The translations under genes were made by a program, and so were the position numbers. Shown piece by piece: positions 641 through 26,115 of a DNA stretch of 32,000 nucleotides; position 1 is the first letter of the stretch, and each line of letters begins with the position of its first letter. Below the pieces are notes generated by a model. The model was given only the letters and a program-made list of their open reading frames with translations. It ran no database searches and was not told where the DNA came from. This DNA is from Nostoc sp. PCC 7120 = FACHB-418 (lineage in GTDB: Bacteria; Cyanobacteriota; Cyanobacteriia; Cyanobacteriales; Nostocaceae): the NCBI RefSeq assembly GCF_000009705.1, contig NC_003276.1:1-32000 (forward strand). The letters run 5' to 3'.

Positions 641-1715
641 TAACCGTACCTTGGGCGAGAAGAACTCTACGTTTAGCTCAACGACTAAGTGCGATTGCTT
701 TAGCTAATGGTGGTGCAGCCGGGGTAAGACTCTCGCAGCAATTAGGGATAAAAGTTTCTCGCAATACACTATTAAATTTAGTCCGTTCTATACCACTACC
801 ACCAATCGTAACGCCACATACTCTTGGGGTAGACGATTTCTGCTTTCGTAAATGTAAAACTTACGGAACAGCACTAATTGACCTGGAACGCAGACGACCA
901 GTTGCTCTACTAAAAGATGCTAAGGCTGAAACCTTGGCAGAATGGTTAAAAGCTCACCCTGGTGTCAAAGTTGTCTCACGAGATCGGTCAAAAACTTATG
1001 AAAGTGGTATTCGCCAAGGTGCGCCAGAAGCCATTCAAGTTGCAGACCGCTTTCATCTATTGCAAAACTTATCTCAAACGCTTTATCAAGTCTTTGGTAA
1101 TCACGCCAAAACACTAAAAGAAGTGGAAAAACAAGTCTTTAATACTGAAACTAAAGTGCATTTAGAGGTGGAAACAGCAAACAACCTTTCCATGATTGCT
1201 GAGGCTAATAAGAGTCCAGTTGTGCCGAGGTTTCCCCAAAACACATCTTTAAAAAGAAAAGTCCAATCCGCCAAGGCGCAGGCTAGACGAAGGGACATCC
1301 ATGCGCGAGTTTGGAGCTTGCGGTCTATTGGCTTATCAGTGCAAGCAATCGCTCAATCCCTGGGAGTTGCTAAAAATACCGTATATAATTACTTGCGTAG
1401 CTCAACTTTTACCGAACGTCGTGAACGTAGCGACAAAGGTCTGAGCCTTCTCAATCCTTATCATGATTACCTCCTCAGTCGCTGGAATAGCGGGAATCAC
1501 AGCACCCAAAAACTGTTTGAGGAAATTCGCGCCTACGGCTATACCGGTAGTTATGCCACGGTCTCTCGCTTCACTCGTTATCTCAAGACCGTGCCTGGAT
1601 TTGAACCAGCAAAAGGTTCAAGAAAAAACGCTTCTCTCAGGGTAAGCTCTTCCTCCCATCGTCCTCTCACCCCCAGTCGCGTCACAGCTTTAGTCTTGCG
1701 GCGACCAGAATTAAT
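641..1715 (+). pseudogene. ISL3-family transposase, central segment (5' part displaced by the IS5 element, 3' part displaced by the nested IS)
   Basis: Frame 1 is open from about 637 and reads PWARRTLRLAQRLSAIALANGGAAGVRLSQQLGIKVSRNTLLNLVRSIPLPPIVTPHTLGVDDFCFRKCKTYGTALIDLERRRPVALLKDAKAETLAEWLKAHPGVKVVSRDRSKTYESGIR...ADRFHLLQNL. These are ISL3-type motifs recalled from memory. The frame stops at a TAG created by the IS inserted at 1716. Confidence 0.8.
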
Positions 1716-1733
1716 CTAGCGTGGCAAAACTTA

Positions 1734-2540
1734 CTAGAGAAGACGACTCTCTAGATTAGCCAAGTAAGCCTTGGGGTCTCTGCGAAATCGATACTGTTCA
1801 ATTCTGGCTTTGTGGTGTTTTTGCAATTGAGAGCGTAATTCGAGCCAAGTATGAATATCAACTTGTGCTAAATCAGATGCGGTAAAAGAATGAAGCTTAG
1901 TAGCTATCGCACAGGCAAGTTTGACAGAACCACGAATAACGAGAGATGAGGGGGCAACCTTACGACCGGTACAACGACGTTGATGATAACGTAGCATACC
2001 AAAAGCGTGTTCTAAGTCATTATTAGTTCTAGGAAAATCTTCAATTTCATAACAATGAAAAAGTCCAGACCAGTAGCTGTGGGTGGTTTTTATAAAGTTA
2101 TCGATTGCAGTGTTCAGGGTACCAGCTTTCTGCTTTTGTTGAGACATTTCTGTCAACAGTTGCTGATAACTTTGTTTGACCCCAGCAGCATCAAGACCTA
2201 TTTTATTGTTGAGAATATTACTAGCTTTATCAACCCACTGATATGCAACCCTCACAGGTGAAAATAAAGATGCAGTAGCAGATAATCCCTTAGCTAGAAG
2301 GTGTTTTAGGTTAACTAAAGGTGGTGGTAAAGCACTTCTTTTTTCCATCCTTTCTAAGCTTTGTTCTATCAAAGTCAAATTTTCTTGTAACTTTAATCCA
2401 GATGCCTCTAACGGTGGATGTCCATCATTGGTTATAGAACTACGGACTGCCGAGCAATAATCTTCAATAATAGTCACCAAATCCTTATCTTCATTGGTAA
2501 CACTACGTTCAATTTCTCGTAATCCTCTAACTTTTTTTTT
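1734..2540 (-). CDS. DDE transposase of the nested IS, C-terminal segment (second frame)
   Basis: The frame is open from 2540 (KKKVRGLREIERSVTNEDKDLVTIIEDY...) to the stop at 1734. It contains FPRTNNDLEHAFGMLRYHQRRCTGRK, a transposase C-terminal-type motif. It joins the upstream segment only if one A of the A10 run is skipped. Confidence 0.7.
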   Translation of the reverse strand, partial: KKKVRGLREIERSVTNEDKDLVTIIEDYCSAVRSSITNDGHPPLEASGLKLQENLTLIEQSLERMEKRSALPPPLVNLKHLLAKGLSATASLFSPVRVAYQWVDKASNILNNKIGLDAAGVKQSYQQLLTEMSQQKQKAGTLNTAIDNFIKTTHSYWSGLFHCYEIEDFPRTNNDLEHAFGMLRYHQRRCTGRKVAPSSLVIRGSVKLACAIATKLHSFTASDLAQVDIHTWLELRSQLQKHHKARIEQYRFRRDPKAYLANLESRLL

Positions 2541-3315
2541 TCAATTCCTTTTTTGCATTTCTATCCGCCTCATATATGGGTTTAATTGCTTCTTTCAGGT
2601 AATGGTAATGACATAAACCATGAGCAATTTTAGGTAATGCTAACCCAACAGCTTTACGAATTGATTGTTGTCCATCACTAACAACTCCATCAATTGGTAC
2701 ATCCAGTGTATTAGCCACTTCTAATAATAACGCTACTAAATCTTCATTCCTTGATGATAATAAAGTTTTAGCAAGTAAAATTTCTCCTGATAGACAATCT
2801 CGAATTACCCATAATACCTCATGTCCAATTTCTGGCTGCATCCCATCAATGGCTAATATCACCCGTCCTTGATTAGCCACTATTGCTTTTAATCTTTTAT
2901 GGTCTTTTAGCCATAAAGAAAGTAACTCGTCATATCTGTCAATTAAGTGTGTGACCGTTCGTTTACTTATACATATACCCTTTAATTCAAGGTGAGTATG
3001 TATTTGAGGAACACTTCTATGTTCCTGGTAGCGTAATGCTCCTATATAAGCAATCACATCCAAACCAAATTCGTTCTGTGGTAGAGCGAGTGACCCTTCT
3101 TGCTCTGGTCGATATGCTTTTTTATACCGCATACATGACTTATTTTGACATCGCCGAATTTTTAGCTGTAGTTCTACTACCCCATTTAGCGTTCTTATAT
3201 GTCGAGGATTATTGTATTCATTCCACATTGCTTGACCACACGAAGGGCATTTTTTTTGAACACAATCGAGTACTTCAAACGATGTTGCCTCTGGTTTTAA
3301 ACTTTTTCTTACCAA
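2527..3315 (-). CDS. DDE transposase of the nested IS, N-terminal segment (zinc-finger plus first catalytic Asp residues)
   Basis: The 262-aa ORF has CPSCGQ...C..C zinc-finger-like cysteines, then ILAIDGMQPE and VVSDGQQSIRKAV (candidate DD residues) and CHYHYLKEA. It ends KKELKKKS* inside an A10 run (T10 on the + strand at 2532-2541). Confidence 0.75.
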   Translation of the reverse strand: MVRKSLKPEATSFEVLDCVQKKCPSCGQAMWNEYNNPRHIRTLNGVVELQLKIRRCQNKSCMRYKKAYRPEQEGSLALPQNEFGLDVIAYIGALRYQEHRSVPQIHTHLELKGICISKRTVTHLIDRYDELLSLWLKDHKRLKAIVANQGRVILAIDGMQPEIGHEVLWVIRDCLSGEILLAKTLLSSRNEDLVALLLEVANTLDVPIDGVVSDGQQSIRKAVGLALPKIAHGLCHYHYLKEAIKPIYEADRNAKKELKKKS

Positions 3316-4330: not shown

Positions 4331-5200
4331 TCAAAATTTGGTCATGCAGGGGGTAAAATCACAGTTATTAGCAGTCTTGTAATGAAAGTCTTTCCGAGTA
4401 TCAGCGACTTTCTTGTGCTGTTTGCCCAACTGCTGAATAGCTTTCTTGCGACGATTAGAACCCTTTTTGCGTCTTGAAACCTTGCGTTGTGCCAACTTTA
4501 ATTTACGTTCAGCTTTACGTAAAAACTTTGGCGCTGCTATCCTATCGCCATCTGAAGTAACAATAAAATCAATCAATCCTACATCAATGCCAACAATATT
4601 ATTGATATCAAGATCAGTCTTGATTGTTGGAACTGTCTTATCTTCTAAGCTCAAAGTCACATAGTAGCCATCTGCTTTTTTGGTTACAGATACAGTTTTA
4701 ATATCAAACCCGTCTGGTATTGGACGATGAACAATTACTTTGACTGTTCCAATTTTTGACAGTGTTATTTTATCTTTGGTGAAATGCTCCTTTTTGAATT
4801 GTGGATAGGTGAAAGTCTTGTACTGACCTTTCCCTTTGAATCTTGGTTTGCCACTACGTTTGCCATTGCTATCTCCTTTTAACCATCGGTCAAAAGCAAT
4901 TTCAACTTTTTTAGGTACTTCTTGCAACGTCTGAGAATGAATGCTTTTGTACCAAGGTCTGTCCTTCTTTAGTTGGGTTAGCGTTGCCTGTTGACTAAAG
5001 CGATTGGGCTTATCTCTTAACTCTGGGATATGACAAACAACAAGTGAGCATCTATCTACGGAGCAACGATTTTGCTCGTACCAATCAAACCTCTGAGCAA
5101 GCTGATAATTATACTGGCATCGAAGCATATCTAATGTTTTATCAATATGCAATGCTTGTTCTTTCGTTGGTTTTAGTGGGTACTGATAAGATATTCTCAC
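4331..5200 (-). pseudogene. tnpB: TnpB (IS200/IS605 OrfB) truncated at the 3' end
   Basis: The N-terminus is MRISYQYPLKPTKEQ... and the RuvC-I motif is IVGIDVGLIDFIVTSDG. Similarity stops after DTRKDFHYKTAN at about residue 280. The RuvC-II Glu, the zinc finger and the RuvC-III Asp segments expected in TnpB proteins of about 400 aa are absent. Confidence 0.8.
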
Positions 5201-5253
5201 TTGCTCGACTAATTAAGTGTTACTTTTTTAGTATACACTGATTTAGGCATAAC

Positions 5254-5673
5254 ATGAAAGATGATTTTGTTTCAAAAGGAAGGTCTGTTAGCGACCTAAA
5301 AGTGCATTTAGTATTGGTTACTAAATATCGGCGTAAAGCGTTTACGTCCGAGATGCTAAGTAGACTAAATGTTGTAATGCAAGAATTATTAGAAAAGTGG
5401 GATTGTAAGCTAGTAACGTTTAATGGTGAAGAGGATCATGTACACCTACTCTTTCAGTATCATCCAGACGTTGAACTTAGCAAGTTAGTCAATAATCTAA
5501 AGTCTGTATCATCGAGGAAACTTCGCCAAGAATTTGCAGAACATTTAGAAAGTTTCTATTGGAAGGACGTATTTTGGAGTGGTTCTTATTTTGTTGCTAG
5601 TTGTGGTGGCGTTACTGTTTCTACACTAAGAAAATATATTGAAGCGCAGGAATCACTCACACAATCAACCTAG
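5254..5673 (+). CDS. tnpA: IS200/IS605-family Y1 (HUH) transposase TnpA
   Basis: The 139-aa ORF has the HUH motif (EEDHVHLLFQY) and the C-terminal catalytic Tyr region (WSGSYFVASCGGVTVSTLRKYIEAQ). Size and motifs are typical. Confidence 0.9.
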   Translation: MKDDFVSKGRSVSDLKVHLVLVTKYRRKAFTSEMLSRLNVVMQELLEKWDCKLVTFNGEEDHVHLLFQYHPDVELSKLVNNLKSVSSRKLRQEFAEHLESFYWKDVFWSGSYFVASCGGVTVSTLRKYIEAQESLTQST

Positions 5674-5797: not shown

Positions 5798-7252
5798 TTA
5801 AATATTTGTCAAAATTCTAGCTTTTTTCAGGAGAAACTGTAGAATTATTGTTTCTGAAGAAAGAATATCTGCTCTTGCTTCCATGCCAGATTTAATTGCA
5901 CACTGGCGATCACCTGCTGTTAGTTCCAGTTTTTTTGGTTGGATAGTTACCTCATACATTGCTGGATTATTTTGATTACCAGAGTTAATGACATCAGGAG
6001 AAATGGCACTCACACTGCCTTTGAGAGTGCCGTATTCAGTATAGGAACAACTAGAAATTCGTAATTGTACTTCTTGATTTGTTTCTACTTTACGAATATC
6101 GGAAGCTGGTACCAGTGCTTTAATAATTAAAGGCGACTTTCGAGGAGAAATTTGAGCAACAATATCACCCGAACGTATTATTTGTGCAGGATTACGCAGA
6201 TTTAATTCCTGAATAATTCCAGAGGCAGAAGCGCGAATTGCTGTGTTAGCAATCTCACGCATAATTTGGTTTAGTTCCTGGCGATCGCGGCTCAATTGTT
6301 TTTGCAATTCTAATTTTTGCTGTAATAATTGTTCTCTTTCTTGATTTAATCTGCTTAAACTAACTTCACTAACAGCGCGTTCTGTAGCAATTTTTTCTTG
6401 AGCAATGACCACATTCGCATCACTAGGATTGAGATTAGCCAATGCCCCTTCCAGTCTAGCTTTTGCTGCTGCGATCGCATATTTTTGTTGTTGAATTGCT
6501 TGTTGGCTTTGTTCTACATTAGCTGTCTGCGATTCTAAGATCTGTTGTTGTTGTTCAAAAGCTAGTTGTACTTCTTGAAATTGATCTTGAGAAATTGAAC
6601 CTGTTTCTAGTAAGGGTTTATATCTATCTCGTCTTGCTTGTGCAGCCTTTAAAGAAGTTTCGCTAGATTTAAAATTGGCAATTGCTGATTTTAACTGACT
6701 TTGGGTTTTTTGTAACTCTTTCTCAGCTTGCTGGAGATTTGCTTGAGCCTCCCTAAATTGCACAGAAGAATTGATTTCCCGATCTTGAAAATCACGCTGA
6801 TTACGATTCAATTCAGCTTCCGCCGCAGATATCACCCGATTAATGCGATCGCGCTCTGCAATTATTTGTTTATTCAATGCCGTAATTTGGGCATCAATTT
6901 GAGTTAGTTGCAGTGTTGCTTGTTGAATATTCGTTTGTAGTTGGCTTTTTTGCGTTTGCAACCGATCATCCTCTACCAGGGCAATAATATCACCTTGATT
7001 AACTGTCTGATTAACCTGAACAGCCAAGCTTTTAATTTTGCCTTCCGTAGCTGCTTGCACCAAGCGCAACTCTCCATCTGGGCGCACAGTCGCCGGAACC
7101 TTTACAGTCACTCGATATTTAAGAATACTAGCCAGAAAAAAAGTAGTCGCAAAAATGCTTAAGAGAACCACACCCCCCATCGTTACCCAGCGATTAATCG
7201 GAGGCAAAAATTCATCAGGAGTCGCAGCGTGTAAGGAATAATTATCAGTCAT
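5798..7252 (-). CDS. HlyD-family secretion adaptor (membrane-fusion protein)
   Basis: The 484-aa ORF has an N-terminal TM helix (WVTMGGVVLLSIFATTFFLASIL), a lipoyl-like motif (GDIIALVEDD), a long Q/E-rich coiled coil and a C-terminal beta domain. It is the last gene of the minus-strand operon with the microviridin genes. Confidence 0.85.
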   Translation of the reverse strand: MTDNYSLHAATPDEFLPPINRWVTMGGVVLLSIFATTFFLASILKYRVTVKVPATVRPDGELRLVQAATEGKIKSLAVQVNQTVNQGDIIALVEDDRLQTQKSQLQTNIQQATLQLTQIDAQITALNKQIIAERDRINRVISAAEAELNRNQRDFQDREINSSVQFREAQANLQQAEKELQKTQSQLKSAIANFKSSETSLKAAQARRDRYKPLLETGSISQDQFQEVQLAFEQQQQILESQTANVEQSQQAIQQQKYAIAAAKARLEGALANLNPSDANVVIAQEKIATERAVSEVSLSRLNQEREQLLQQKLELQKQLSRDRQELNQIMREIANTAIRASASGIIQELNLRNPAQIIRSGDIVAQISPRKSPLIIKALVPASDIRKVETNQEVQLRISSCSYTEYGTLKGSVSAISPDVINSGNQNNPAMYEVTIQPKKLELTAGDRQCAIKSGMEARADILSSETIILQFLLKKARILTNI

Positions 7253-7320: not shown

Positions 7321-8292
7321 TCAAATATGACTTAGTAAAACTTTAGCGATCGCTTGAGAAATAGGCAAGCCAGGACACCGTTCTAACCAAAAGAATTCAC
7401 CTACAGGATTAACTTCTAGAAAAACATAGCGATTATCTGGGGTTAAAATTACATCAATTGCCCCGTAATTTAAACCAAAATGCGCCATCAGTTGCAATAA
7501 TTTGTCTGCCACATCTTGGGGTAAAGTATGGGTTTGCCAAGCATCAAGTAAAGCTACCCCCTGTTTTCGCCAATCGTAACGGGATTTATCTAAGGCTTGA
7601 GAATTTACAGCCGCAGTCAATATAGATTTACCCACAATCGTGATTCTTAGTTCTAAAACTTTGGCAATTTTTTCTTGAAATGTCATCGGACAAAAACGCA
7701 ATCCCTCTAAATTTTCTAAATCTTCGCTCTTTACGGGATTGGTAAATACTACTTGTTCTCCCCCTTTTTCGTCATAAATGGCAAAGGAAGAAAGCATTTT
7801 TGTAATTACATCCTGTTGACATTCTGCGGCAAATTCTTTGACGGCTTGGGGATTATTGGTAGTTAAAGTCCGTGGGGTATCCAAACCGATTTTTCTGGCT
7901 ACTTGCAGTTGTAGTTGCTTGTTTTCTGCACGACGAATATTTGGCACAGGGTCGAGGTGAAAACCTCTGATGCTGGCAATCATTCCTTGAATCGTGGCGC
8001 GAGATTCTTGAATAGAAGCTTGGCGCAATTGCTTATCCATAGTTGGAGGAATTTTTCCACCAATGGCGATGCGCCGATACCAAACTGCTGTTACTTCGTT
8101 TAAATCTAGCTTTTGGTCATCAGCAACCAGGACACATTTTTCCGTATTACTGTAATAAATATCTAGTTGTACTTCCGTGGGAAATCGGTCTGTGTCAAAA
8201 CGAAATGCTTTACCTCCCTGTGATTCAATTGCTTGAGTTACTAGAGAAATACTTTCGTTATCGTGGCTGTGAGTAATAATTAAGACATTCAT
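7321..8292 (-). CDS. mdnC: Microviridin-type ATP-grasp macrocyclase, MdnC/MvdD-like (omega-ester ligase by similarity)
   Basis: Starts at the internal ATG (MNVLIITHSHDNESISLVTQAIESQGGKAFRFDTDRFPTEV...). Other matching stretches are AENKQLQLQVARKIGL, FCPMTFQEKI, LRITIVG, NYGAIDVILTPDNRYVFLEVNPVGEFFWLE. It closely resembles MdnC as I recall it. The 28-codon upstream extension in the ORF track overlaps the preceding gene and was trimmed. Confidence 0.85.
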   Translation of the reverse strand: MNVLIITHSHDNESISLVTQAIESQGGKAFRFDTDRFPTEVQLDIYYSNTEKCVLVADDQKLDLNEVTAVWYRRIAIGGKIPPTMDKQLRQASIQESRATIQGMIASIRGFHLDPVPNIRRAENKQLQLQVARKIGLDTPRTLTTNNPQAVKEFAAECQQDVITKMLSSFAIYDEKGGEQVVFTNPVKSEDLENLEGLRFCPMTFQEKIAKVLELRITIVGKSILTAAVNSQALDKSRYDWRKQGVALLDAWQTHTLPQDVADKLLQLMAHFGLNYGAIDVILTPDNRYVFLEVNPVGEFFWLERCPGLPISQAIAKVLLSHI

Positions 8293-8303
8293 ATAAAAGA
8301 TTT

Positions 8304-9284
8304 TTAGTTTTGAATGAGAGAATCTGCGATTGCTTCGGAAATGGGATAATTTAAATCTCGCTCTAACATTCCCCATTCCCCTGTAGGATTAATTTCTAAA
8401 AAAACATATTCTTCTAATGGGGTAACGATGAAATCAAACGCGCCAAATGTCAAACCCAACCGCGCCATAAATTGATCAAGGTGCTGAATAATCTCCTTTG
8501 GTAATTCGTAAGGCTGCCATGTACAAGACTCTTGGTTAGCACGTCGCCAATCTTGGGTAGATGCTTCATAACTAGAAGCGTCTAAAGCTCCCACAAATAA
8601 ATTGCCATTGACATATACTGCTCGTAATTCCTGCTGTTTGGGAATTTGCGCTTGAAAAACCATTGGACAGTAGCGCAGAGTCTCAGCATCTAGCAAGTCC
8701 TCTTCTTTAACGGTGCTGGTGTACATGAAAAAAGATGAGCCTTCCATGCTGTAAGAAAGGGGTTTTAACAGTTTGGTGATCATTTTGCCGTTGACTTGCT
8801 CAAAAAATTCTCTGGCTTCTTTGGGGTTATTAGTCACTAAAGTTGGAGGAATCACCAAACCAACTTCAGCAGCTACTCTCAGTTGATATAACTTATTTTC
8901 AGCTGCATTTATCTTCTGTAAATCATCCACCCAATGAGCGTGTCTGAGGCTGTCCCAAAAGCCATCCCACACAGCTAAAGATTCTTTAGTACAAGCATCT
9001 CGATATTGCGGAGCTAATTCTGGACTCAAATGCGGTTGCCAAAGTCGCCGCATCCATACAGCTTGTACTTGCTCAGTATTTAAGGTTATGTCTCCATACT
9101 CAATCTGATGATGAGAGTTTGATTGATGGAAATAAGCTTGAATTTTAACCGTCATGGGAAACTTATCAGTATCGAGGCGAAACGACTGGACATTTCTCCT
9201 GGATAAAGCTGCGGCAACTCTATCAATTGTGAAATAATCACCACTATGAGTAATTAATAAAACTACATCACGCTGTAAAGGCAT
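8304..9284 (-). CDS. mdnB: Microviridin-type ATP-grasp macrocyclase, MdnB/MvdC-like (omega-amide ligase by gene order)
   Basis: Starts at the internal ATG (MPLQRDVVLLITHSGDYFTIDRVAAALSRRNVQSFRLDTDKFP...). Other matching stretches are AENKLYQLRVAAEVGL, YCPMVFQAQI and FGAFDFIVTPLEEYVFLEINPTGEWGMLE. It is a paralogue of the downstream ligase and sits directly after the precursor gene. Confidence 0.8.
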   Translation of the reverse strand: MPLQRDVVLLITHSGDYFTIDRVAAALSRRNVQSFRLDTDKFPMTVKIQAYFHQSNSHHQIEYGDITLNTEQVQAVWMRRLWQPHLSPELAPQYRDACTKESLAVWDGFWDSLRHAHWVDDLQKINAAENKLYQLRVAAEVGLVIPPTLVTNNPKEAREFFEQVNGKMITKLLKPLSYSMEGSSFFMYTSTVKEEDLLDAETLRYCPMVFQAQIPKQQELRAVYVNGNLFVGALDASSYEASTQDWRRANQESCTWQPYELPKEIIQHLDQFMARLGLTFGAFDFIVTPLEEYVFLEINPTGEWGMLERDLNYPISEAIADSLIQN

Positions 9285-9324
9285 AAAATATTTTTCTGGA
9301 TGTCTGCAACACAAACTCGTTAAT

Positions 9325-9355
9325 TATTAATAAACCAACCCTTTGAAGGGGTTGG
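9325..9355 (-). terminator. Hairpin plus T-rich tail between precursor and ligase genes (possible attenuator)
   Basis: On the minus strand: CCAACCC-cttcaaa-GGGTTGG (7-bp stem, 9335-9355) followed by TTTATTAATAA. It lies 74 nt after the precursor stop codon and upstream of the mdnB-like start. Confidence 0.45.
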
Positions 9356-9428
9356 CGACAATCAGTATATTCATTTATTGACAAAATTTTCCCAGTTCAA
9401 AACTTTATTTACTCAAAATTAGCTATTT

Positions 9429-9731
9429 CTAACCAACTGGTTGATCATCGTCATCAGATGGAAATTTCAGAGTAACAATTTCGCCACCACCATTGTCTTC
9501 ATTATCAGAAGGATACTTCAGAGTGACAGCAATGTCTTCATCACGAAGTTTCCCGGTTACACCATTACCATCTTCACAATCAGAAGGATACTTTCTTGTT
9601 TGCCCTCTTTTTCCACCACTAACTGCTTCTGATTCTTCATCTGTCAGGTCTTCACAGTTTTGACCTTCTAAGAAGCGGGCAAAAAAGGGAACTGCTTGTG
9701 CGTTCAAATCTTCTTGTCTATTCTCTGGCAT
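9429..9731 (-). CDS. mdnA: Microviridin-family precursor peptide with three core repeats
   Basis: 100 aa from the internal ATG: MPENRQEDLNAQAVPFFARFLEGQNCEDLTDEESEAVSGGKRGQ-TRKYPSDCED-GNGVTGKLRDEDIAV-TLKYPSDNED-NGGGEIV-TLKFPSDDDD-QPVG. It has the PFFARFL leader motif (9669-9689). The three TxK[YF]PSDx[ED][ED] cores lie at 9570-9599, 9495-9524 and 9444-9473. Confidence 0.9.
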   Translation of the reverse strand: MPENRQEDLNAQAVPFFARFLEGQNCEDLTDEESEAVSGGKRGQTRKYPSDCEDGNGVTGKLRDEDIAVTLKYPSDNEDNGGGEIVTLKFPSDDDDQPVG

Positions 9732-9974
9732 AAATATTCTCCTAAGACAAAAATAAGTGACAATCAATTAACATCTTTAAACCAGGGTATTACATAATGT
9801 TTAACTAGACAAGTTTTTAATTTCTCTTAAATAGTAGTTAACTTTTTCCATGCCCATATACATACAAAAAATTTATCAAAAAAACTAATATTAGTTACGG
9901 TTTAAGTATTACTTAGATAATGTTAAGTTTTATTAAAAAAATATTTTGTTTTGAACTTAGTTAATCCCAAAAGC
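9732..9974. promoter_or_regulatory. AT-rich divergent intergenic region (presumed promoters of the precursor operon and the exporter gene)
   Basis: A 243-bp AT-rich spacer lies between divergent start codons (9731 minus, 9975 plus). No specific -10/-35 elements were assigned. Confidence 0.35.
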
Positions 9975-12119
9975 ATGAAATATCAGATTGTTTTGCAACA
10001 CAGTGAAGAAGACTGCGGCGCAGCGTGTATTGCCACTATTGCCAAATATTATAAACGGGACTTTGCGATCGCTCGTGTCCGGGAAGCTGTGGGTACAGGC
10101 GCACAAGGGACAACTCTGGTAGGTTTAAGACGCGGTGCAGAAAGTCTAGGATTTCATGCACGGCAAGTAAAAGCAACGCCACAATTAATTAATCAACTCC
10201 AGGAAGCACCTCTGCCTGCGATTATTCATTGGAAAGGTTACCACTGGGTAGTATTGTATGGTCAAAAAGGGAAAAAATATGTAATTGCAGATCCTGGCGT
10301 TGGTATTCGCTACATCAACCGCGAGGAATTAGCCACAGGCTGGGCAAATTGCATTATGTTATTGCTAGTCCCAGATGAAATTCGCTTTTATCAACAAGAA
10401 TCAGATAAAATTAAGGGCTTCAGTCATTTTTTAGCCAGAGTCATACCTTATCGCCACATTTTAACGGAAGCATTTTTAATTAACTTAGCAATGGGAATAT
10501 TGTCCCTAGCTTCCCCTTTTTTGATTCAAATTTTGACTGATGACGTATTAGTTAGAGGTGATATACAGCTACTAACTACAGTGGGAATTGGGGTAATGGC
10601 AATGAATATTTTTAGTAGTAGCTTAAAACTCATCCAATCTAACTTAATTGCCCATTTTGCTCAACGTTTAGAATTAGGCTTAACTTTAGAATTTGGTAGA
10701 CAAATTTTGCGTCTACCTTTAACCTACTACGAAGCTCACCGGAGTGGAGAAATTGTGAGTCGTTTGCGGGATATTGAACAAATAAATCAACTTGTATCAC
10801 AAGTCGTTATTAGCTTTCCTAGTCAAATTTTAATTGCCATAATTTCCCTAGCATTTATGTTGATTTACAGTTTCAAATTACTAGGTGTGGCAGTATTAAT
10901 GGCATTTATTATGTCATTATCTACAATAATTTTTCTGCCGACATTACAGCGCAAAGTTCGTGATGTTATTGTCACTCAAGCCGAAAATCAAGGTATGTTA
11001 ATTGAAACTTTTAAGGGGATACTAACATTGAAAACTAGCAACACAGCGCCGCAAGCTTGGGAAGAAATTCAACAGCGTTTTGGCCATCTGGCAAATTTGA
11101 GTTTTAGCACTGTGCAAATTGGTATTATCAATAATGTATTTTCTGGCTTGGTTTATGGATTTAGTAATTTGGCTGTACTATGGTTTGGGAGCAGTTTAGT
11201 AATTAATCAAGAATTAAGTATTGGTCAATTGTTAGCCTTTAATGCGATGAATGCTAATTTTAATGGTTTAATTACTACCGTAATTGGTTTTGTAGATGAA
11301 TTTGCTAGAGTTAAAACTGCCACCCAACGGGTAACGGAAGTTATTGATAGTACCCCTGAAGATCAAAATGAACAAGCTAAACCTTGGGCGAATCTTCCTG
11401 AAAATACAGATATTATCTGCTCTCAAATTAATTTTCACCACATAGGTAGAGCCAACTTACTTACAGATTTTTCTGTAACTATTCCTGGGGGGGAAGTTAC
11501 AGCATTAATTGGTAAATCTGGTTGTGGTAAAAGCACTTTAGCAAAACTTATAGCTGGATTATATCCGTTACAATCAGGTAATATTCGTTTCGGAATTTAT
11601 AACCATCATGATTTATCTTTAGAATGTCGGCGACAGCAAATAATATTAGTCCCTCAAGAAGCCCATTTTTGGAGTCGTTCAATTTTTGATAACTTCCGCT
11701 TTAGTTATCCTGATGTTACTTTTGAACAAATTGTCAAAGCTTGTCAAATTGCTGGTGCAGATGAATTTATTAATGAATTACCGGATGGCTACCAAACTGT
11801 ATTAGGGGAATTTGGGGTAAATATTTCCGGTGGGCAAAAACAAAGATTAGCTTTAGCCAGAGCTATTGTGACCGAACCACCAATTTTAATTTTAGATGAA
11901 TCGACTAGTGCCTTAGACCCAGTATTAGAAGCCCAAGTATTAGATAAATTGTTATTTCATCGGCAAGGTAAAACGACTATTATTATTAGCCATCGTTCCC
12001 GTGTCATTTTACGTGCAGATTTGATTGTTTATTTAGATAAAGGGCATTTAAAACTACAAGGTACTCTAGACCAAATACAAGTTATTTCAGGAGAACACTT
12101 AGATTTTTTAAACCCTTGA
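9975..12119 (+). CDS. Peptidase-containing ABC transporter (C39 double-glycine peptidase plus ABC exporter)
   Basis: The N-terminal C39 domain has a catalytic Cys (QHSEEDCGAACIATIAKYY), His (YHWVVLYG) and Asp (VIADPG). Six TM helices follow, then Walker A GKSGCGKST, signature ISGGQKQRLALARA, Walker B ILILDEST and H-loop IIISHR. The ATG at 9975 is preferred over the TTG at 9951. Confidence 0.9.
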   Translation: MKYQIVLQHSEEDCGAACIATIAKYYKRDFAIARVREAVGTGAQGTTLVGLRRGAESLGFHARQVKATPQLINQLQEAPLPAIIHWKGYHWVVLYGQKGKKYVIADPGVGIRYINREELATGWANCIMLLLVPDEIRFYQQESDKIKGFSHFLARVIPYRHILTEAFLINLAMGILSLASPFLIQILTDDVLVRGDIQLLTTVGIGVMAMNIFSSSLKLIQSNLIAHFAQRLELGLTLEFGRQILRLPLTYYEAHRSGEIVSRLRDIEQINQLVSQVVISFPSQILIAIISLAFMLIYSFKLLGVAVLMAFIMSLSTIIFLPTLQRKVRDVIVTQAENQGMLIETFKGILTLKTSNTAPQAWEEIQQRFGHLANLSFSTVQIGIINNVFSGLVYGFSNLAVLWFGSSLVINQELSIGQLLAFNAMNANFNGLITTVIGFVDEFARVKTATQRVTEVIDSTPEDQNEQAKPWANLPENTDIICSQINFHHIGRANLLTDFSVTIPGGEVTALIGKSGCGKSTLAKLIAGLYPLQSGNIRFGIYNHHDLSLECRRQQIILVPQEAHFWSRSIFDNFRFSYPDVTFEQIVKACQIAGADEFINELPDGYQTVLGEFGVNISGGQKQRLALARAIVTEPPILILDESTSALDPVLEAQVLDKLLFHRQGKTTIIISHRSRVILRADLIVYLDKGHLKLQGTLDQIQVISGEHLDFLNP

Positions 12120-12277
12120 TTAGTATTTGTAATATGCACATGGCGAAATTGTTGAAATGTTGCGCTTGCGTGGCAAATAGATCGGAAGTACCATACTGTT
12201 TACCCAGAGTTTTGACAAACAAAAAGCTGCTGCCATTGCTGATCTAAGCTCAGACAAGTTCAATCTGCAAACAACTT

Positions 12278-14490: not shown

Positions 14491-14670
14491 TTACAGTTTC
14501 TTGAAGTACCTAGCAACTGGGAACAACCCAAAACCCAGTTTTTCATAGGTACAACGTGCTGGTGCATGACCAGGATCACCTCCAGTTTCGACCATAGCAA
14601 TGGAAATTCCCGTCGCTTTCATCCAATTAAGAGCAAAGTTTATCAGAGCAGAACCTACGCCTTGACACAT
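14491..14670 (-). pseudogene. C-terminal remnant of a GNAT acetyltransferase
   Basis: A 59-codon ORF below the track cut-off: MCQGVGSALINFALNWMKATGISIAMVETGGDPGHAPARCTYEKLGFGLFPVARYFKKL. It starts inside the acetyl-CoA-binding Q/RxxGxG/A motif, and an in-frame TAA lies 8 codons upstream of the ATG. The N-terminal half of the domain is therefore missing. Confidence 0.5.
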
Positions 14671-14721: not shown

Positions 14722-15603
14722 ATGCAAGTAGAAGAAATTTTAGCTCAACTAGAAATTAATACTAAAACTTTCCCCCGTTTAGCTTTAGAAGCAGCCATCG
14801 AGCAGAGAGAAGCTATTACACCTATATTAATATCAACTTTAGATAAGTTAAGTGAGAATCTTGAACAGCTATTAGAGAAAGAAGACTATATTTTACATAT
14901 TCATGCTTTATATTTACTAGCACAGTTTAGGGAAGAGTCAGCATACCCTACAATTATCAAGTTTTTTTCAGTTCCTGGTGATGTTGCATTAGATGTAACT
15001 GGAGATATAGTAACTGAGGATTTAGGTAGAATACTCGCTTGCGTTAGTGGCGGAAGGATTGAGCCGATAAAACAACTTATAGAAAATTCAAAAGCTAATG
15101 AATATGTAAGGGGTGCTGCATTAGAAGCATTATTAGTTTTAATAGCTCAAGAAGTTATTACTAGAGAACAGGTTATACAATATTATGCCAAGCTGTTTTC
15201 AACTTTAGATAAAGAAGATCATTATATCCAAACTACTTTAGTAACCAATAGCGCACAGCTTTGTGCAGTCGAACTGCAAGAACAAATAAATCGGGCTTTT
15301 GAGCAAAACTCAGTTGATTTGTTTTTTATTGACCAGGAAGATGTAAGCACTTATCTAGTAGTAGAAAAAGAAGAAGCTTTAAATAGGCTACGTAAAAATC
15401 CCAAGTATTCTTTTATTAAAGATGTGATCTTAGAGATGGAGAATTGGAGTTGTTTCCAGCCACAAGAGAAATATCCATCATATAATATTTTTATTCCAGA
15501 AGGATTTAGCCTTGGAGTATCCAAAAAATCTAAAAATAAAGATAGGAACAAGAAAAAAATGCAAAAGCAGTCTCGGAGAAAAAATCGTTCCAAGAAAAAG
15601 TAA
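14722..15603 (+). CDS. Hypothetical protein, DUF1186-like, with Lys/Arg-rich C-terminal tail
   Basis: A 293-aa ORF in clearly AT-rich sequence. The N-terminal pattern (EILAQLE...FPRLALEAAIEQREAITPILISTL...ILHIHALYLLAQFREESAYPTIIKFF) matches my recollection of DUF1186. The tail is KKSKNKDRNKKKMQKQSRRKNRSKKK. Confidence 0.55.
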   Translation: MQVEEILAQLEINTKTFPRLALEAAIEQREAITPILISTLDKLSENLEQLLEKEDYILHIHALYLLAQFREESAYPTIIKFFSVPGDVALDVTGDIVTEDLGRILACVSGGRIEPIKQLIENSKANEYVRGAALEALLVLIAQEVITREQVIQYYAKLFSTLDKEDHYIQTTLVTNSAQLCAVELQEQINRAFEQNSVDLFFIDQEDVSTYLVVEKEEALNRLRKNPKYSFIKDVILEMENWSCFQPQEKYPSYNIFIPEGFSLGVSKKSKNKDRNKKKMQKQSRRKNRSKKK

Positions 15604-20108: not shown

Positions 20109-21016
20109 GAGGGTGTTTGAAAAGTAGGGGATGTTGTAAAAAAACTCCCTCGGTATAAGCTGTGAATAGATAACAAACAGCACCGAGAGAGCGACATGAG
20201 TAAAGCATACCCCAGCAATCTGACCCGTGAGCAATATGAATTGATCAGGGACCTGATTCCAGAGGCAAAACCCGGTGGACGTAAGCGTGAAGTGGATATG
20301 TGGTCAGTCCTAAATGCAATTTTCTATATTTTGGTAGAAGGAGTGAGATGGCGAGGGCTACCAGGAGATTTTCCGCCCTGGCAAACAGTGTACACATATT
20401 TCCGTAACTGGCGTAAAGACGGAACGTGGTTACACATCCACGACAGGCTGAGGGAGTGGGTGCGGATAGAGCAGGAACGACACAAGAATCCATCAGAAGC
20501 GATCATCGATAGTCAAAGCGTCAAAAGTGCGGCGATGCTGAGTCAAGACGTAGGCTTTGATTCAGGTAAGAAAATTAAAGGGCGTAAGCGATTTATCACA
20601 GTCGATACCTTGGGATTAGTACTACGAGTCTTGGTGACGGCTGCCAATGTGGGTGAGCGTGCTGGTGGTCAACAAGTTCTCAAACGAGTTAAACAATCTC
20701 AGGCGAAAGATCGCTTAACCACCATTTGGGTTGATGGTGGCTTTGATGGGGAACCGTTCATGCAGTGGGTCATGAATTTTTGTCGTTGGATTGTACAGGT
20801 GGTGCTGCGGCCAGAGCAAACCAAGGGCTTTGTTTTGCTCAAAAAACGTTGGGTGGTAGAACGCACTTTTGGCTGGTTCATGGGATGTCGGCGATTGGTT
20901 AGAGATTATGAATTATTACCCGAAACCTCAGAAACATTTATCTACCTTGCAATGATCCGTATTATGGTGAAGCGATTGGCTTAATTTTGACTCCCTATAA
21001 CTTTTCAAACATCCTC
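20109..21016 (+). mobile_element. Complete IS5-family insertion sequence (908 bp)
   Basis: The terminal inverted repeats are GAGGGTGTTTGAAAAGT (20109-20125) and the reverse complement of 21000-21016, GAGGATGTTTGAAAAGT. A 3-bp direct duplication, TTA, lies at 20106-20108 and 21017-19. The element has a single transposase ORF. Confidence 0.9.
20196..20984 (+). CDS. IS5-family DDE transposase (single-frame)
   Basis: The 262-aa ORF has an N-terminal DUF4096-like region (LTREQYELIRDLIPEAKPGGRKREVDMWSVLNAIFYILVEGVRWRGLPGDFPPWQTVYTYFRNW). The DDE region reads IIDSQSVK...TVDTLGL...IWVDGGFDG...VVERTFGW. Confidence 0.9.
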   Translation: MSKAYPSNLTREQYELIRDLIPEAKPGGRKREVDMWSVLNAIFYILVEGVRWRGLPGDFPPWQTVYTYFRNWRKDGTWLHIHDRLREWVRIEQERHKNPSEAIIDSQSVKSAAMLSQDVGFDSGKKIKGRKRFITVDTLGLVLRVLVTAANVGERAGGQQVLKRVKQSQAKDRLTTIWVDGGFDGEPFMQWVMNFCRWIVQVVLRPEQTKGFVLLKKRWVVERTFGWFMGCRRLVRDYELLPETSETFIYLAMIRIMVKRLA

Positions 21017-21362: not shown

Positions 21363-24300
21363 TTAAAAATGGGTAGGAGAGTGAGCAGATATCACAATAA
21401 AACCAACAGAATCAAGTTTAAGTTGTGGCTGATGAATGCCTTGAACGATAGCGGACTTCAAAAGCCTTTCGATTTTCAATTCTTCAGCTAGAGTATTATC
21501 CCAAGCTTGTGTATTCAAACGTAAATTTAACTGCTCTACTTTAGCAGCTAGTTTCTGCTCTGCTAAATGAGCATAACGTTGACATAGTTGAATCAAGTGT
21601 TGACGTTGGGTGAGTAACGTCCTTGATGTATTACTAACTTCTTGACAAACTTTAGACCAATTAGTAGGCGCAATAAAATTGTCAATGATTCCTAAACGTT
21701 CTTTAGCAAGATTATGATCTTGTACTTCATGAGAAGTTTTATCTTTTTGATATGGGCGTTGTAATATACTCAAGAGTAATTCATCCTGAACTTCACTAAG
21801 TATTTCGGAACGAGCATCAATAAAGATAGTTTCAATCAATGGTGGAAATAAAGCGTCTACCTGACGCTTCAAGACGTTAAACCGAGAATTATCAAGTTGA
21901 TAATCTGTAAAAATCTGCTTGGCTTTTTCCAGATTAAATTCAACTAAATAGTTACATTGAAAACCAAACCATTCCATGCCCTCACTGCTGTCCCAAGATG
22001 AATCTTGTCGCCAAAGAGCAAAAGCTTGACCACGGTCATCCCATTCTATATATCTGGAAAGTGCATCTACCAACCCTTCTCCTATACGAAAAAGTTTGAT
22101 ACCAGGATTGTGGTTTGCTAGTTGGCGGTCATAAGTACCAAATTGGTTGAGATTGCTATGGATAAAGCGAGATTTCAACTCGTTGAGAGGGACTAAAGTA
22201 TACTTAGTTGCTTGATAATACTTGACATTTGCTAAATCTGGGTGATAAACAGATTTGAATTTTAGTGAATTATCAATCCAACCTTCTATAGCTCGTTTAA
22301 TTTCCAGATGATTAAGATCGTAACTATCTAGCTCTGGAAAAAATGTATCGTCATTCTCTCCAAGCAGAGCCTTATTTAATTTATGTTCTGCAATCACCTG
22401 GGATTGCGCTTGAGCAATTGTGTTTTTGATGGATTCTACTTGTTTGAGTAAACCAATAGCGCCTATTTGAAACAAGCTTTGTTCTAGATGTGATAATTCA
22501 TTATCTAATCGGAAACTAGCTATAGACTCAGTAAAAATGGAAAATCCATCCTTTAAAAGTTGATACCAAGCATAATGAAGACTATCATCTAAATCAGCGC
22601 CAACTAGTACGGTAAAATCAATATTTTTAGAACGCCCAATTTGGTCGAATCTAATAATTCTCTGTTCTAATTGATGTGGTTGCCAAGGTAGGTCAAAATT
22701 AATTACCCAATCAACAAATCCAAAATTATGACCCTCCTGTGCAGAAACATCACAGATAAAGATAAAGTAATTAGGATTAGTGTAAAACTGCTGTAAGTTT
22801 TTCTCGATTTCTCCCCAACTTTGTTCTGATTGATGGACAGCAATAGTTTCTGTACCAAAAGCATTTGCTAGTGAACGAGCGATTTCTAAGCAGGTTTGTC
22901 CAAAACTGGTAAATATCAATATCTTTGGCAAATAATCACCAGGAATAGGTCTAGAAATTCTCTGCCGGATTCTCTCGCTTAGTTTGCTAAGGTCGCTGCG
23001 AAATGATTGCAAACCAAAAATTTCTGATAAGCGGTAGAGAATGATGATTTTTAATAGTTCAATTCGATCTCCGTCTTCTGAAGGTTGATTAATAATTTGG
23101 CGTAAAGAGGTTAAAACCTCTTCTTCACCTTCAAACTTGGGAGTTTCAGTTAAGAGATTGACATCATCACTACTAAACTCTTTAAGTAGCAATGGATGAC
23201 GCACTCCACTCTGGCGTGCGGCTATTACTCGCTCTAAAATACCTAACCACGTACCAGAAGCTAAGAACAACAGCAGAAAAATGCGTTTATAAGCTTCCTG
23301 TTTGGGGGCAATAGTACGCCATTTCTCTAGCAGTTCATGAATATCAGGCGACCTCTCATCTAAATCGTATTCTTCCTTGGGTGTAATATTGCGGCTAAAT
23401 GTGTCATCTTCTAGATAAGCACGACGATTAGACAGTATTCGCTGATACAGTCGATAGTTTTCATTAATATAACTGCAAATTTCTTTAAGGGTTTTAGTAT
23501 GAGCAGACGAATCAGTGTTTAAGCCATCTTCCCATTTACCTAATAAAGTTAATAAATACTTGTCTTCGGGTAATAATGTTTGTAATTGCTTTAAACCATT
23601 GTGGACATTAGAAGTATTTTCCTCATTTATTAATGAGGAGATAAGTTGAGCTAGCAGTTTATCTTTATTAATTTTTAGCTGAAAATCTTCTAGATTATTG
23701 AGTTGATAAATTTTAGGCTCAAGTAAATGCAGCAGAACTAGTAACTCTTGCTCACATTGAAGAATATGACTTGCAGATAGTAAAAGTAAGTGTTCGCTTC
23801 TATGGGCTAGATACTTATAGATTTCAAAATCCTGGCGTAGTTTGCTATCTTGGGAATTAGCCATTGCGGCAATGTGGTGGGCTTCATCCAAAATTAGCAA
23901 GCCAATATTTTTCTGTGCATTAATTTTGGACGAATCCTCGTATGCCAGCACTACTACTCTTGTAGGAAACGAAGAAATATAGAATTTATTCTCTAACTCA
24001 TTTTTCCATTGTTGTAGTAATTTCCCTGGAACCAAGACTACTACTTTTTTTTCTGGCTCATCAAGTAGATATTGGCGCAGAATTACACCAGCTTCAATAG
24101 TTTTTCCCAGTCCGGCTTCATCAGCTAATATGTAGCGTTGAACTGAATCTTGTAATACTTGCCTGATGACTTCTACTTGATGAGGGTAAAGATGAATATT
24201 GGATGAAATTAGTCCACTCATCCCACGACTTACAGCCCTCTGCTGGATTAAGCATTTGATTAAAGCTGACCTTCTGTCGTGTAAATAGGGTGTTTCGTGT

Positions 24301-24668
24301 GCCTTGATTGCTAGTGTTTCAACCGGATCTTTTATTGTTAAATTACAACGGACATAAACTTCTTGTTCTGATTTAATTATAGATTTCTGCCCTGGCAAAT
24401 CAATTTCATACCTTTGGATGTCTTCATCCCATCCAGAAATTCTGCCAATTACCCATTTATATTTATCTTGCTCTTTTAATTGAACATAACATCGCGTTTG
24501 AGGTCTTAGTATAACCCCAGACAACGATTGTAAGGGTAAATGTTCTTGCCAGTGCTGTCCTATGGTACTAAAATACTCAACAACAATACTGCCACCAGAT
24601 ACTTCAATTACTTTACCTGTCCCCAAAGTATTATTTGAGGACTGCACTAATGAGCCAAGCTTAATCAT
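21363..24668 (-). CDS. SNF2-family ATPase/helicase, RapA-like
   Basis: The 1101-aa ORF has an N-terminal Tudor-like segment (LGTGKVIEVSGGSIVVEYF). SF2 motifs are LYPHQVEVIRQVL, ILADEAGLGKTIEAG (Walker A), LLILDEAHH (DEAH), LLLSAS, and QEGHNFGFVDWVINFDLPWQPHQLEQRIIRFDQIGR (motifs V-VI). The layout parallels E. coli RapA as recalled. Confidence 0.85.
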   Translation of the reverse strand: MIKLGSLVQSSNNTLGTGKVIEVSGGSIVVEYFSTIGQHWQEHLPLQSLSGVILRPQTRCYVQLKEQDKYKWVIGRISGWDEDIQRYEIDLPGQKSIIKSEQEVYVRCNLTIKDPVETLAIKAHETPYLHDRRSALIKCLIQQRAVSRGMSGLISSNIHLYPHQVEVIRQVLQDSVQRYILADEAGLGKTIEAGVILRQYLLDEPEKKVVVLVPGKLLQQWKNELENKFYISSFPTRVVVLAYEDSSKINAQKNIGLLILDEAHHIAAMANSQDSKLRQDFEIYKYLAHRSEHLLLLSASHILQCEQELLVLLHLLEPKIYQLNNLEDFQLKINKDKLLAQLISSLINEENTSNVHNGLKQLQTLLPEDKYLLTLLGKWEDGLNTDSSAHTKTLKEICSYINENYRLYQRILSNRRAYLEDDTFSRNITPKEEYDLDERSPDIHELLEKWRTIAPKQEAYKRIFLLLFLASGTWLGILERVIAARQSGVRHPLLLKEFSSDDVNLLTETPKFEGEEEVLTSLRQIINQPSEDGDRIELLKIIILYRLSEIFGLQSFRSDLSKLSERIRQRISRPIPGDYLPKILIFTSFGQTCLEIARSLANAFGTETIAVHQSEQSWGEIEKNLQQFYTNPNYFIFICDVSAQEGHNFGFVDWVINFDLPWQPHQLEQRIIRFDQIGRSKNIDFTVLVGADLDDSLHYAWYQLLKDGFSIFTESIASFRLDNELSHLEQSLFQIGAIGLLKQVESIKNTIAQAQSQVIAEHKLNKALLGENDDTFFPELDSYDLNHLEIKRAIEGWIDNSLKFKSVYHPDLANVKYYQATKYTLVPLNELKSRFIHSNLNQFGTYDRQLANHNPGIKLFRIGEGLVDALSRYIEWDDRGQAFALWRQDSSWDSSEGMEWFGFQCNYLVEFNLEKAKQIFTDYQLDNSRFNVLKRQVDALFPPLIETIFIDARSEILSEVQDELLLSILQRPYQKDKTSHEVQDHNLAKERLGIIDNFIAPTNWSKVCQEVSNTSRTLLTQRQHLIQLCQRYAHLAEQKLAAKVEQLNLRLNTQAWDNTLAEELKIERLLKSAIVQGIHQPQLKLDSVGFIVISAHSPTHF

Positions 24669-24689
24669 CAGAAAAATAGGTTTGAAACC

Positions 24690-24715: not shown

Positions 24716-24730
24716 CTTTACAAATATCTT

Positions 24731-25825
24731 CTAGGCAACAATTAAGCCGTTGGAACGGCTAATTAACTGCACTTTACTAGAAGCAATCTGCCCTAACCGT
24801 TTCCAGTTAGCGTCGCTGACAGATACTTGTTTTTCGGTGTCTCCTGACACATAGCCAATCCCTTTAGGGGAAGTAACTAAATCCCCCTTGCGTAAGCCAT
24901 GACGAGTTGTAGAACCGCCATATTTACGACGTACACCACTTTTTGCAGGAACCATCAAGTGAAGTTGGCGGCGAGAGTAAGGAGGACGACGAATTAGTTT
25001 AAATAGCGCAAATGTAATCACAACATTTCCAAACCAATCGCCACCATTAACTTTTACTGTGTGATACTGGCGATACTCAACAAAAGCTGTAGCTGCAATA
25101 GCCACACCATCAACTGCATGAGTATTAAATTCTGACTTAGACTTGTCTGAAGAGTTTTTAGTCAGTCCCAGGTATTTACGAGTTGACGCGGTTTGATAAC
25201 CTTCGACTTTCGCTACTGGGGCAAACTGTTCTAACTGCTTCAACATCCACTTCTGCCCGACCATCACCGCAGAGAAACCTTTACCACTCCTAGCTTTTTT
25301 ACGTCCACTGGTCAGGTCTACATCTGCCCTAACGTACTCGTAACGAATTTCTGAGATTGGATAGATTTTGCATAGCTCAGAAACAATTCTCAACTCAAGT
25401 TGACGATTGGCGCGAATTGAAGGTGGAAGTTTACCCTGACGACGATTATCAAAGCGTTTCTGACGATGTGCGCGTTTTAAAAAATTAACCTTACGATCAA
25501 TCCTTCTACCTCTGCGACCACGCCGCATTAATCGTCTTGCGTCCATGCGATCACGCACTGTTTGGAATGGCAAAATCAAGTGAGCCGTGTACAGTGTGAA
25601 CTTGGCAGACTGTACACCGATCCCAGAAAACTTTTTACCTGGATCAATCCCAATAACAATATCTTGGGTTGCTCGTCCAGATGGTTCACCAGTAAGTTGC
25701 ACATAAAATTGTCCACAGTCTGAAGTGCGTTTTACCGCTTTACCCGACTCTACCCATTTCCTAGCCCTTGCGGGTGTTGTGGGCATTAGTGGTTGGTGGT
25801 TTTTATCTACTACAGGTACTCGCAT
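24731..25825 (-). CDS. isrB: IsrB-type OMEGA effector (PLMP domain plus split RuvC, no HNH); often annotated as RRXRR-domain protein
   Basis: 364 aa from the ATG at 25825. It reads MRVPVVDKNHQPLMPTTPARARKWVESGKA (PLMP motif), VIGIDPGKKFSGIGV (RuvC-I), RRLMRRGRRGRRIDRK...RFDNRR (Arg-rich bridge helix, RRXRR), ISEIRYEYVRADV (RuvC-II) and FNTHAVDGVAIA (RuvC-III). No Cys/His HNH insert lies between RuvC-II and RuvC-III. The C-terminal segment is GDLVTSPKGIGYVSG. Confidence 0.8.
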   Translation of the reverse strand: MRVPVVDKNHQPLMPTTPARARKWVESGKAVKRTSDCGQFYVQLTGEPSGRATQDIVIGIDPGKKFSGIGVQSAKFTLYTAHLILPFQTVRDRMDARRLMRRGRRGRRIDRKVNFLKRAHRQKRFDNRRQGKLPPSIRANRQLELRIVSELCKIYPISEIRYEYVRADVDLTSGRKKARSGKGFSAVMVGQKWMLKQLEQFAPVAKVEGYQTASTRKYLGLTKNSSDKSKSEFNTHAVDGVAIAATAFVEYRQYHTVKVNGGDWFGNVVITFALFKLIRRPPYSRRQLHLMVPAKSGVRRKYGGSTTRHGLRKGDLVTSPKGIGYVSGDTEKQVSVSDANWKRLGQIASSKVQLISRSNGLIVA

Positions 25826-26115
25826 TTTGGTATAACCCAATTTCTTGTTTTAGTCCCTTCCCGCAACAAGGTTAAGATGTCTTGGCTTTACCCAACTTCT
25901 GAACCAATCAGAATTACAGAGGGCTAAACTAGGGAAGCATTTAGCCGTGTTTACCAAACCTTGTCTCAATGCGGTATTCACCTTTTGCATTGTCTAAATT
26001 GGTTTAGACAATCCCTGCACTTTTAGAGGCAGGGATGGTGAAAGTTTTGTCCCCTAATCCTGAACCTTCTCAAATCCCAGCCAAAAATTTCGCAGAATTA
26101 CAATTCTAACTGGTT
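25826..26115 (-). ncRNA. Candidate omega-RNA scaffold upstream of isrB (boundaries approximate)
   Basis: About 290 nt are non-coding on the isrB strand and hold several perfect stems. The stem pairs are 25990-25998/26003-26011 (9 bp), 26013-26018/26029-26034 (6 bp), 25922-25928/25940-25946 (7 bp) and 25897-25902/25908-25913 (6 bp). The palindrome AGAATT..AATTCT lies at 26093-26106. The loop GGGAAG (25932-25937) can pair with CTTCCC (25857-25862), a possible pseudoknot. The position matches published IscB/IsrB omega-RNAs. Confidence 0.5.

Follow-up and report, generated by a model that had tools for sequence, protein, structure and literature searches.

The amdnA locus of plasmid pCC7120alpha: a known three-core microviridin precursor and its class II gene cluster

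Does the 100-codon open reading frame considered here encode a microviridin precursor with three cores, and are those cores new? The window, that is, the whole 32,000-nucleotide stretch of NC_003276.1 that was analysed, holds this frame beside the genes of two ATP-grasp ligases. A sequence-only reading had taken the frame for the precursor of a microviridin-family peptide, with PFFARFL in its leader and three cores in tandem, and family models, the neighbouring genes and published biochemistry all agree with that description. The same reading went on to suggest that the cores may encode new protease-inhibitor variants. They do not, since the identical precursor has been published as AMdnA, the product of all7013.

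The precursor gene and its published counterpart

Translation of the minus strand gives MPENRQEDLNAQAVPFFARFLEGQNCEDLTDEESEAVSGGKRGQTRKYPSDCEDGNGVTGKLRDEDIAVTLKYPSDNEDNGGGEIVTLKFPSDDDDQPVG, 100 residues followed by a stop codon. This peptide matches the Pfam family PF12559 (Inhibitor_I10) with an E value of 1.2e-33 and 115.5 bits (cut-off 21) and the NCBIfam model NF033738, 'microviridin/marinostatin family tricyclic proteinase inhibitor', with 85.6 bits (cut-off 26). The family match is far above chance. An AGGAG Shine-Dalgarno sequence stands 8 nt 5' of the ATG at 9731. For this reason, and since the published protein and all homologues begin with MPEN or MSE, a start at the upstream TTG at 9767, which would open a 112-aa ORF, was ruled out. 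The positions of the gene, of its parts and of its neighbours are collected in Table 1.

AMdnA is the three-core microviridin precursor of Anabaena sp. PCC 7120 described by Zhang et al. (2018, Nat Commun 9:1780; PMC5934393). Residues 2-100 of the window peptide are identical to the C-His AMdnA row in the supplement of that paper (PENRQEDL...DDDDQPVG), and the residues that the authors discuss (D51, E53, T59, D76, E78, D93, D95 and TGKLRDE at 59-65) all match it. The GluC fragment masses computed from the window peptide, 4629.06 for F1, 1992.89 for F2 and 1986.98 for F3, equal both the calculated and the observed values of the paper. AMdnC was amplified from 'NC_003276.1 REGION: 7321-8292' (PMC5934393), which is exactly the 323-aa ORF of the window. 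Some supplement rows read 'KYPSCDCED'. This was taken as a PDF-reading artefact rather than a real sequence variant, given that the C-His row is free of it and that the F1 mass fits the window sequence exactly. The locus tags all7010, all7011, all7013 and alr7014 used in two further papers (PMC12267927 and PMC8557916) also fit the window genes, and the all7011 peptide IGLDTPRTLTTNNPQAVK occurs in the window AMdnC ORF. In a paper of 2026, AMdnA stands as the model example of a class II precursor.

There is very little doubt that the locus is amdnA, the class II precursor gene of plasmid pCC7120alpha in Anabaena/Nostoc sp. PCC 7120, acting by a mechanism that we in part infer. No evidence contradicts this identification. 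The plasmid is assigned through the agreement of coordinates and sequences with Zhang et al. (2018), the window being taken as its first 32 kb. Megablast of the cluster against PLSDB gave only short unrelated matches, and an exact 45-nt pattern had no hit in the representative genomes. Because the window peptide is identical to AMdnA, published in 2018, the locus is not a discovery. The gene is annotated, biochemical work on AMdnA and one ligase has been published, and a crystal structure exists for the other ligase. The supposition that the core sequences were uncatalogued failed in the same way, identical cores being already known.

Table 1. Features of the amdnA locus, in window coordinates (nt), with residue numbers of AMdnA where they apply
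Feature	Position	Strand	Basis
amdnA (all7013), class II microviridin precursor	9429..9731, stop included	minus	100-aa translation
Leader peptide, aa 1-40	9612..9731	minus	PFFARFL motif and double-glycine G39-G40
PFFARFL ligase-binding motif, aa 15-21	9669-9689	minus	Translation and coordinates
Double glycine G39-G40	9612-9617	minus	End of AMdnA leader
Core 1 TRKYPSDCED, aa 45-54	9570..9599	minus	Lactone acceptors D51 and E53 published (PMC5934393)
Quasi core TGKLRDE(D), aa 59-66	9534..9557	minus	PMC5934393; alignment with four-core relatives
Core 2 TLKYPSDNED, aa 70-79	9495..9524	minus	Lactone acceptors D76 and E78 published (PMC5934393)
Core 3 TLKFPSDDDD, aa 87-96	9444..9473	minus	Lactone acceptors D93 and D95 published (PMC5934393)
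Terminator-like hairpin with T-rich tail, between amdnA and amdnB	9334..9356	minus	1 site against 0.2 expected from shuffles
amdnB (all7012), MvdC/MdnB-type ATP-grasp ligase	8304..9284	minus	TIGR04185, 547.7 bits (cut-off 425), obtained on ORF 8304..9314
amdnC (all7011), MvdD/MdnC-type ATP-grasp ligase, lactone-forming	7321..8292	minus	TIGR04184, 568.7 bits (cut-off 475), obtained on ORF 7321..8376
HlyD-family membrane-fusion protein (all7010), exporter partner	5798..7252	minus	PF13437, E 3e-20
C39-peptidase ABC exporter (alr7014)	9951..12119	plus	Peptidase_C39, E 1.6e-36; ABC_membrane; ABC_tran

The leader carries the PFFARFL motif at residues 15-21; its role in ligase binding is documented in PMC5934393 and PMC7823629. 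Residues P15-R19, L21, G39 and G40 are invariant across a 17-sequence alignment of precursors (alignment A1), and F20 is nearly so. All three cores are exact fits to T-x-K-[YF]-P-S-D-x-[DE]-[DE], with the Thr, Lys, Ser and three acidic residues that had been ascribed to them, and the published consensus is T-x-K-Y/F-P-S-D-x-D/E-E/D (PMC5934393). The Cys noted in core 1 is Cys52, at the second variable position (X2), the acceptors of core 3 are Asp at all three positions, and each of the three cores lacks the aromatic tail, as had been read from the letters. Thus, every stated detail of the feature stood. That reading had left the minus strand unstated, and the first spacer, GNGVTGKLRDEDIAV, is not inert, for it includes the published quasi core TGKLRDE (see below).

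AMdnA contains two Cys residues, Cys26 in the leader (QNCEDL; nt 9654-9656) and Cys52 in core 1 (nt 9576-9578). Both are kept in the closest relative, P0001, and a leader Cys at the Cys26 position recurs in only a few other relatives (P0007, P0013 and P0049).

At the DNA level, a 34-nt repeat coincides with the three cores, at spacings of 51 and 75 nt, and its copies are 62-79% identical. Tandem Repeats Finder detected no array in amdnA because the cores are too diverged at this level. Scanning the full window for Rfam families and tRNAs gave no match.

How usual such a precursor is can be judged from 118 homologous precursors, with 359 cores in total, retrieved from a search of 5.8 billion proteins. 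Three cores are the modal number (52 precursors), followed by four (34), two (27), one (3) and five (2). All-Asp acceptor sets occur in 51 of the 359 cores (14%) and as a rule belong to the last core of the precursor. Gly is the commonest residue directly after a core, and cores of this class therefore normally have no aromatic tail. Cys at X2, on the other hand, is found in two cores only, one of them in P0001, which shares 87% identity with AMdnA and lies on a 1.6-kb contig. Among the features that had been singled out, only this Cys is rare; the rest are ordinary for the class. More than 380 loci in species-representative genomes encode relatives, nearly all of them in Nostocales.

A complete class II cluster and its surroundings

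The genes follow the order all7010 (HlyD), all7011 (AMdnC), all7012 (AMdnB) and all7013 (AMdnA), with alr7014, encoding the C39-ABC exporter, in divergent orientation. AMdnB, identical at 326 of 326 residues to the 'AMdnB protein' of PDB 7M4S, is predicted to be the lactam-forming enzyme. The best PDB match of AMdnC is MdnC (5IG9), and K165 and D280 are present in its ORF. Alr7014 aligns over its full length with PCAT1 (4RY2), with DCGAAC, H-x-VV and ADPG conserved, and its true start is likely the ATG at 9975. The HlyD protein is named as the partner of Alr7014 in PMC12267927.

Class II, as defined by Ahmed et al. (2017) and relayed in PMC7823629 and PMC13039773, combines one leader and two to five tandem cores with a GG at the leader end, a C39 transporter and often an HlyD protein. 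The cores, the GG, the ligase pair, the C39 exporter and HlyD are all present in the window, which holds a complete class II microviridin cluster. Among 55 related loci with full 8-kb flanks, the ligase pair lies within 8 kb of the precursor in 47, HlyD in 17 and a C39-ABC exporter in 15. Export by the C39-ABC and HlyD pair is therefore not universal in the family, since these genes are found near only about 30% of the related loci.

The hairpin between amdnA and amdnB is also seen in the MFE fold. The intergenic region as a whole folds no better than shuffles (z -0.66), and this local hairpin alone stands out. It may be an attenuator through which precursor transcript would outnumber ligase transcript.

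The association with an exporter has a bearing on another role proposed for All7013. It is one of several candidates in PMC12267927 for an EbfG-like secreted protein that bears a GG motif and would contribute to the biofilm matrix. All7013 has such a motif, and its gene adjoins those for HlyD and for Alr7014, the best PteB homologue, at 57.7% identity (PMC12267927). However, blastp in that study gave no EbfG homologues in Anabaena, and its authors favour another cluster. The strong microviridin family match and the fact that AMdnC has been shown to modify AMdnA argue further against a matrix role, which we regard as highly improbable. The assignment of All7013 as a microviridin precursor is the one retained here.

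A GNAT acetyltransferase gene (PF13523; 12278..12790, plus strand) adjoins the exporter gene. It was considered as an MdnD-type member of the cluster and rejected. None of the 55 related loci has a GNAT homologue within 8 kb of the precursor, and a gene 94% identical at the DNA level resides on plasmid NZ_CP091915.1 of Nostoc sp. UHCC 0870, where it adjoins an HsdR-N-domain gene. A 99-nt fragment of the latter is present in the window, in the intergenic stretch 12146-12244. Hence, the GNAT gene is probably foreign to the cluster; by comparison with this plasmid, it and the HsdR-N fragment resemble a separately acquired block rather than an MdnD gene.

About 240 bp past the GNAT gene lies the gene of a GAF plus LuxR/GerE-type regulator (13033-13800, minus strand). 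This regulator is probably not dedicated to the cluster, because no LuxR-type regulator is found near the precursors of the 55 related loci. Further along, a 59-aa ORF (14491..14670, minus strand) resembles, by eye, a GNAT C-terminal remnant. It adjoins the gene of a DUF1186 protein (14722..15603, plus strand; E 4e-121) whose C-terminal tail is very rich in Lys.

The end of the replicon covered by the window is rich in insertion sequences. An IS200/IS605-type element (4331-5673) is located directly 3' of the HlyD gene. It comprises a Y1 transposase gene, tnpA (5254..5673, plus strand; PF01797, E 1e-44), and, in divergent orientation, a TnpB/OrfB-like ORF (4331..5200, minus strand), which may be truncated since its OrfB_IS605 match ends at profile position 97 of 120. 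Other transposases or remnants are an ISL3-type fragment (934..1719), a weak MULE-type match (2527..3315) and an intact-looking IS4/IS5 DDE transposase (20196..20984). Beyond these, a run of large plasmid or defence-type genes occupies 21363-30919 on the minus strand, including those of a SNF2/ResIII helicase of 1101 aa (21363..24668), an RRXRR-family protein (24731..25840) and a DUF3854 protein of 1132 aa (27521..30919).

Is the cluster active in PCC 7120? It could be cryptic, its genes intact yet yielding no product in laboratory culture. Indeed, no isolation of a microviridin from this strain was found in the literature searched, and insertion sequences flank the cluster, the IS200/IS605 element on its HlyD side and more transposases nearby. 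Against this, the ORFs of all five cluster genes are intact. Furthermore, Tables S3 and S4 of PMC8557916 place All7010, All7011 and All7013 among the MS-detected modified proteins of PCC 7120, one all7011 peptide being weak (score 58.7, PEP 0.018). The detections entered in these tables are modest evidence against a silent cluster, and we consider silence unlikely.

Maturation and the form of the mature product

The action of AMdnC on AMdnA has been described in vitro (PMC5934393). The AMdnA leader is required and recruits AMdnC in trans. The enzyme installs two omega-ester rings in each core, and up to seven dehydrations take place. The order of ring closure is strict, the larger Thr-to-Asp ring (acceptors D51, D76 and D93) being formed before the Ser-to-Glu/Asp ring (E53, E78 and D95). 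The mutants D51A and E53A in core 1, and D76A, E78A, D93A and D95A, are described in the same work. AMdnC is distributive and prefers, but does not strictly follow, an N-to-C order of cores. The enzyme accepts engineered substrates that carry one to four cores, while variants devoid of the quasi core (M1V2 and M2M3V2) are not processed. The influence of AMdnB is stated as not known in the same paper.

The seventh dehydration was attributed to the quasi core, where a single lactone between Thr59 and Glu65 was inferred (PMC5934393). The spacing of these two residues (i+6) is that of the first lactone in the true cores. In alignment A1, the quasi core, written VTGKL-RDED, shares its columns with a complete TxKYPSDxED core of the four-core relatives, and P0002 carries an intermediate form, VTDKCGSDND, at the same columns. 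In addition, the 3' end of the quasi core shows a weak DNA-level similarity to that of core 2. Because of the alignment with a full core and of the P0002 intermediate, the quasi core looks like a decayed fourth core, and probably marks one of four ancestral core positions. In P0001, Gln replaces the acceptor Glu65, which argues against selection on the Thr59-Glu65 ring. Comparison among relatives thus suggests a small addition to the published work, namely the origin of the quasi core by decay.

Each AMdnA core also has the Lys and the acceptor Asp needed for an omega-amide. By homology, AMdnB would close the Lys-to-Asp omega-amides K47-D54, K72-D79 and K89-D96, D54 thereby being the presumed lactam acceptor of core 1, and the outcome would be three tricyclic cages. 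Again by homology, the C39 domain of Alr7014 would cut after G39-G40, and Alr7014 together with HlyD would export the product. In the literature searched, no account was found of AMdnB closing a lactam on AMdnA, of cleavage by the C39 domain, of any mature PCC 7120 product, of protease inhibition or other bioactivity by the AMdnA cores, or of the product of any class II cluster.

What is known of microviridin-protease complexes points to the residue that separates Thr from Lys as P1. It follows that core 1, with Arg at this position, should be directed at trypsin-like proteases, and cores 2 and 3, with Leu, at those of the elastase, chymotrypsin or subtilisin type.

What form would the mature product take? 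One possibility is a secreted polypeptide of about 6.3 kDa (about 60 residues, K41-G100) that would bear all three cages and the quasi-core lactone and be released by one C39 cut after G40. The computed monoisotopic mass of K41-G100 is 6510.08 without modification, 6347.98 after the loss of nine H2O and 6329.97 after that of ten. A leader-type recognition sequence precedes one GG site alone, and spacer 1 is devoid of GG. The cluster encodes no further protease, and the spacers are short, Gly-rich and linker-like. In the graspetide plesiocin, repeated cores stay in a single molecule, which also counts for this model, as does the failure of AMdnC to process the variants devoid of the quasi core (PMC5934393). 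However, all isolated microviridins are single-cage peptides of 12 to 20 residues (PMC5934393, PMC7823629), and those of class I are trimmed by host aminopeptidases and endopeptidases. Moreover, the GGG in spacer 2 could serve as a second C39 site, so that a partial variant with a second cut at this place is possible. A cut at G82/G83 would yield K41-G82/83, with a computed mass of 4489.11 or 4546.13 Da (-6 H2O), and a core-3 peptide of 1876.88 or 1819.86 Da (-3 H2O). On balance, the single polypeptide is a tentative proposal to which we give less than even credence. If it is true, the molecule would be a ribosomal 'multi-headed' protease inhibitor with cages of different specificity (P1 Arg, Leu and Leu).

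Whatever the form of the product, the value that remains in the AMdnA cluster is that of a well-defined test bed for the late maturation, products and activity of class II microviridins.

Comparison with known systems

The nearest known system is the locus itself. AMdnA, AMdnB and AMdnC of PCC 7120 (PMC5934393; PDB 7M4S) agree with the window in peptide, numbering, masses, coordinates and AMdnB sequence, with no difference.

Next come the other class II precursors of Nostocales, P0001 at 87% identity and those of named Nostoc, Calothrix and Aliinostoc genomes at about 60%. They share the PFFARFL leader, the invariant GG, two to five TxK[YF]PSDx[DE][DE] cores without aromatic tail and the Gly-rich spacers, and many adjoin the same ligase pair. 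AMdnA stands apart in the Cys at X2, which is rare among them but shared by P0001, and in the probable decay of one core position to a quasi core.

Class I microviridins (MdnA-E of Microcystis, for microviridins J and B, and MvdA-E of Planktothrix) have in common with AMdnA the PFFARFL motif, the topology of Thr/Ser esters and Lys amide, and ligases of the MdnC and MdnB types. The window ligases match the class I structures 5IG9 and 5IG8 with about 438 bits. Unlike AMdnA, the class I precursors have only one core, which carries an aromatic C-terminal tail, and no GG. Their ABC transporter lacks a C39 domain, their clusters include the acetyltransferase MdnD, and the leader is removed by NosP-type peptidases whose genes are not in the cluster.

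Plesiocin and other multi-repeat graspetides (PsnA2/PsnB) resemble AMdnA in having one leader, repeated cores and a distributive ATP-grasp ligase. In contrast, their core motif and ring topology are different, and they form ester rings alone and lack a lactam ligase. The structure of PsnB (7DRM) is only a distant match, at 48 bits.
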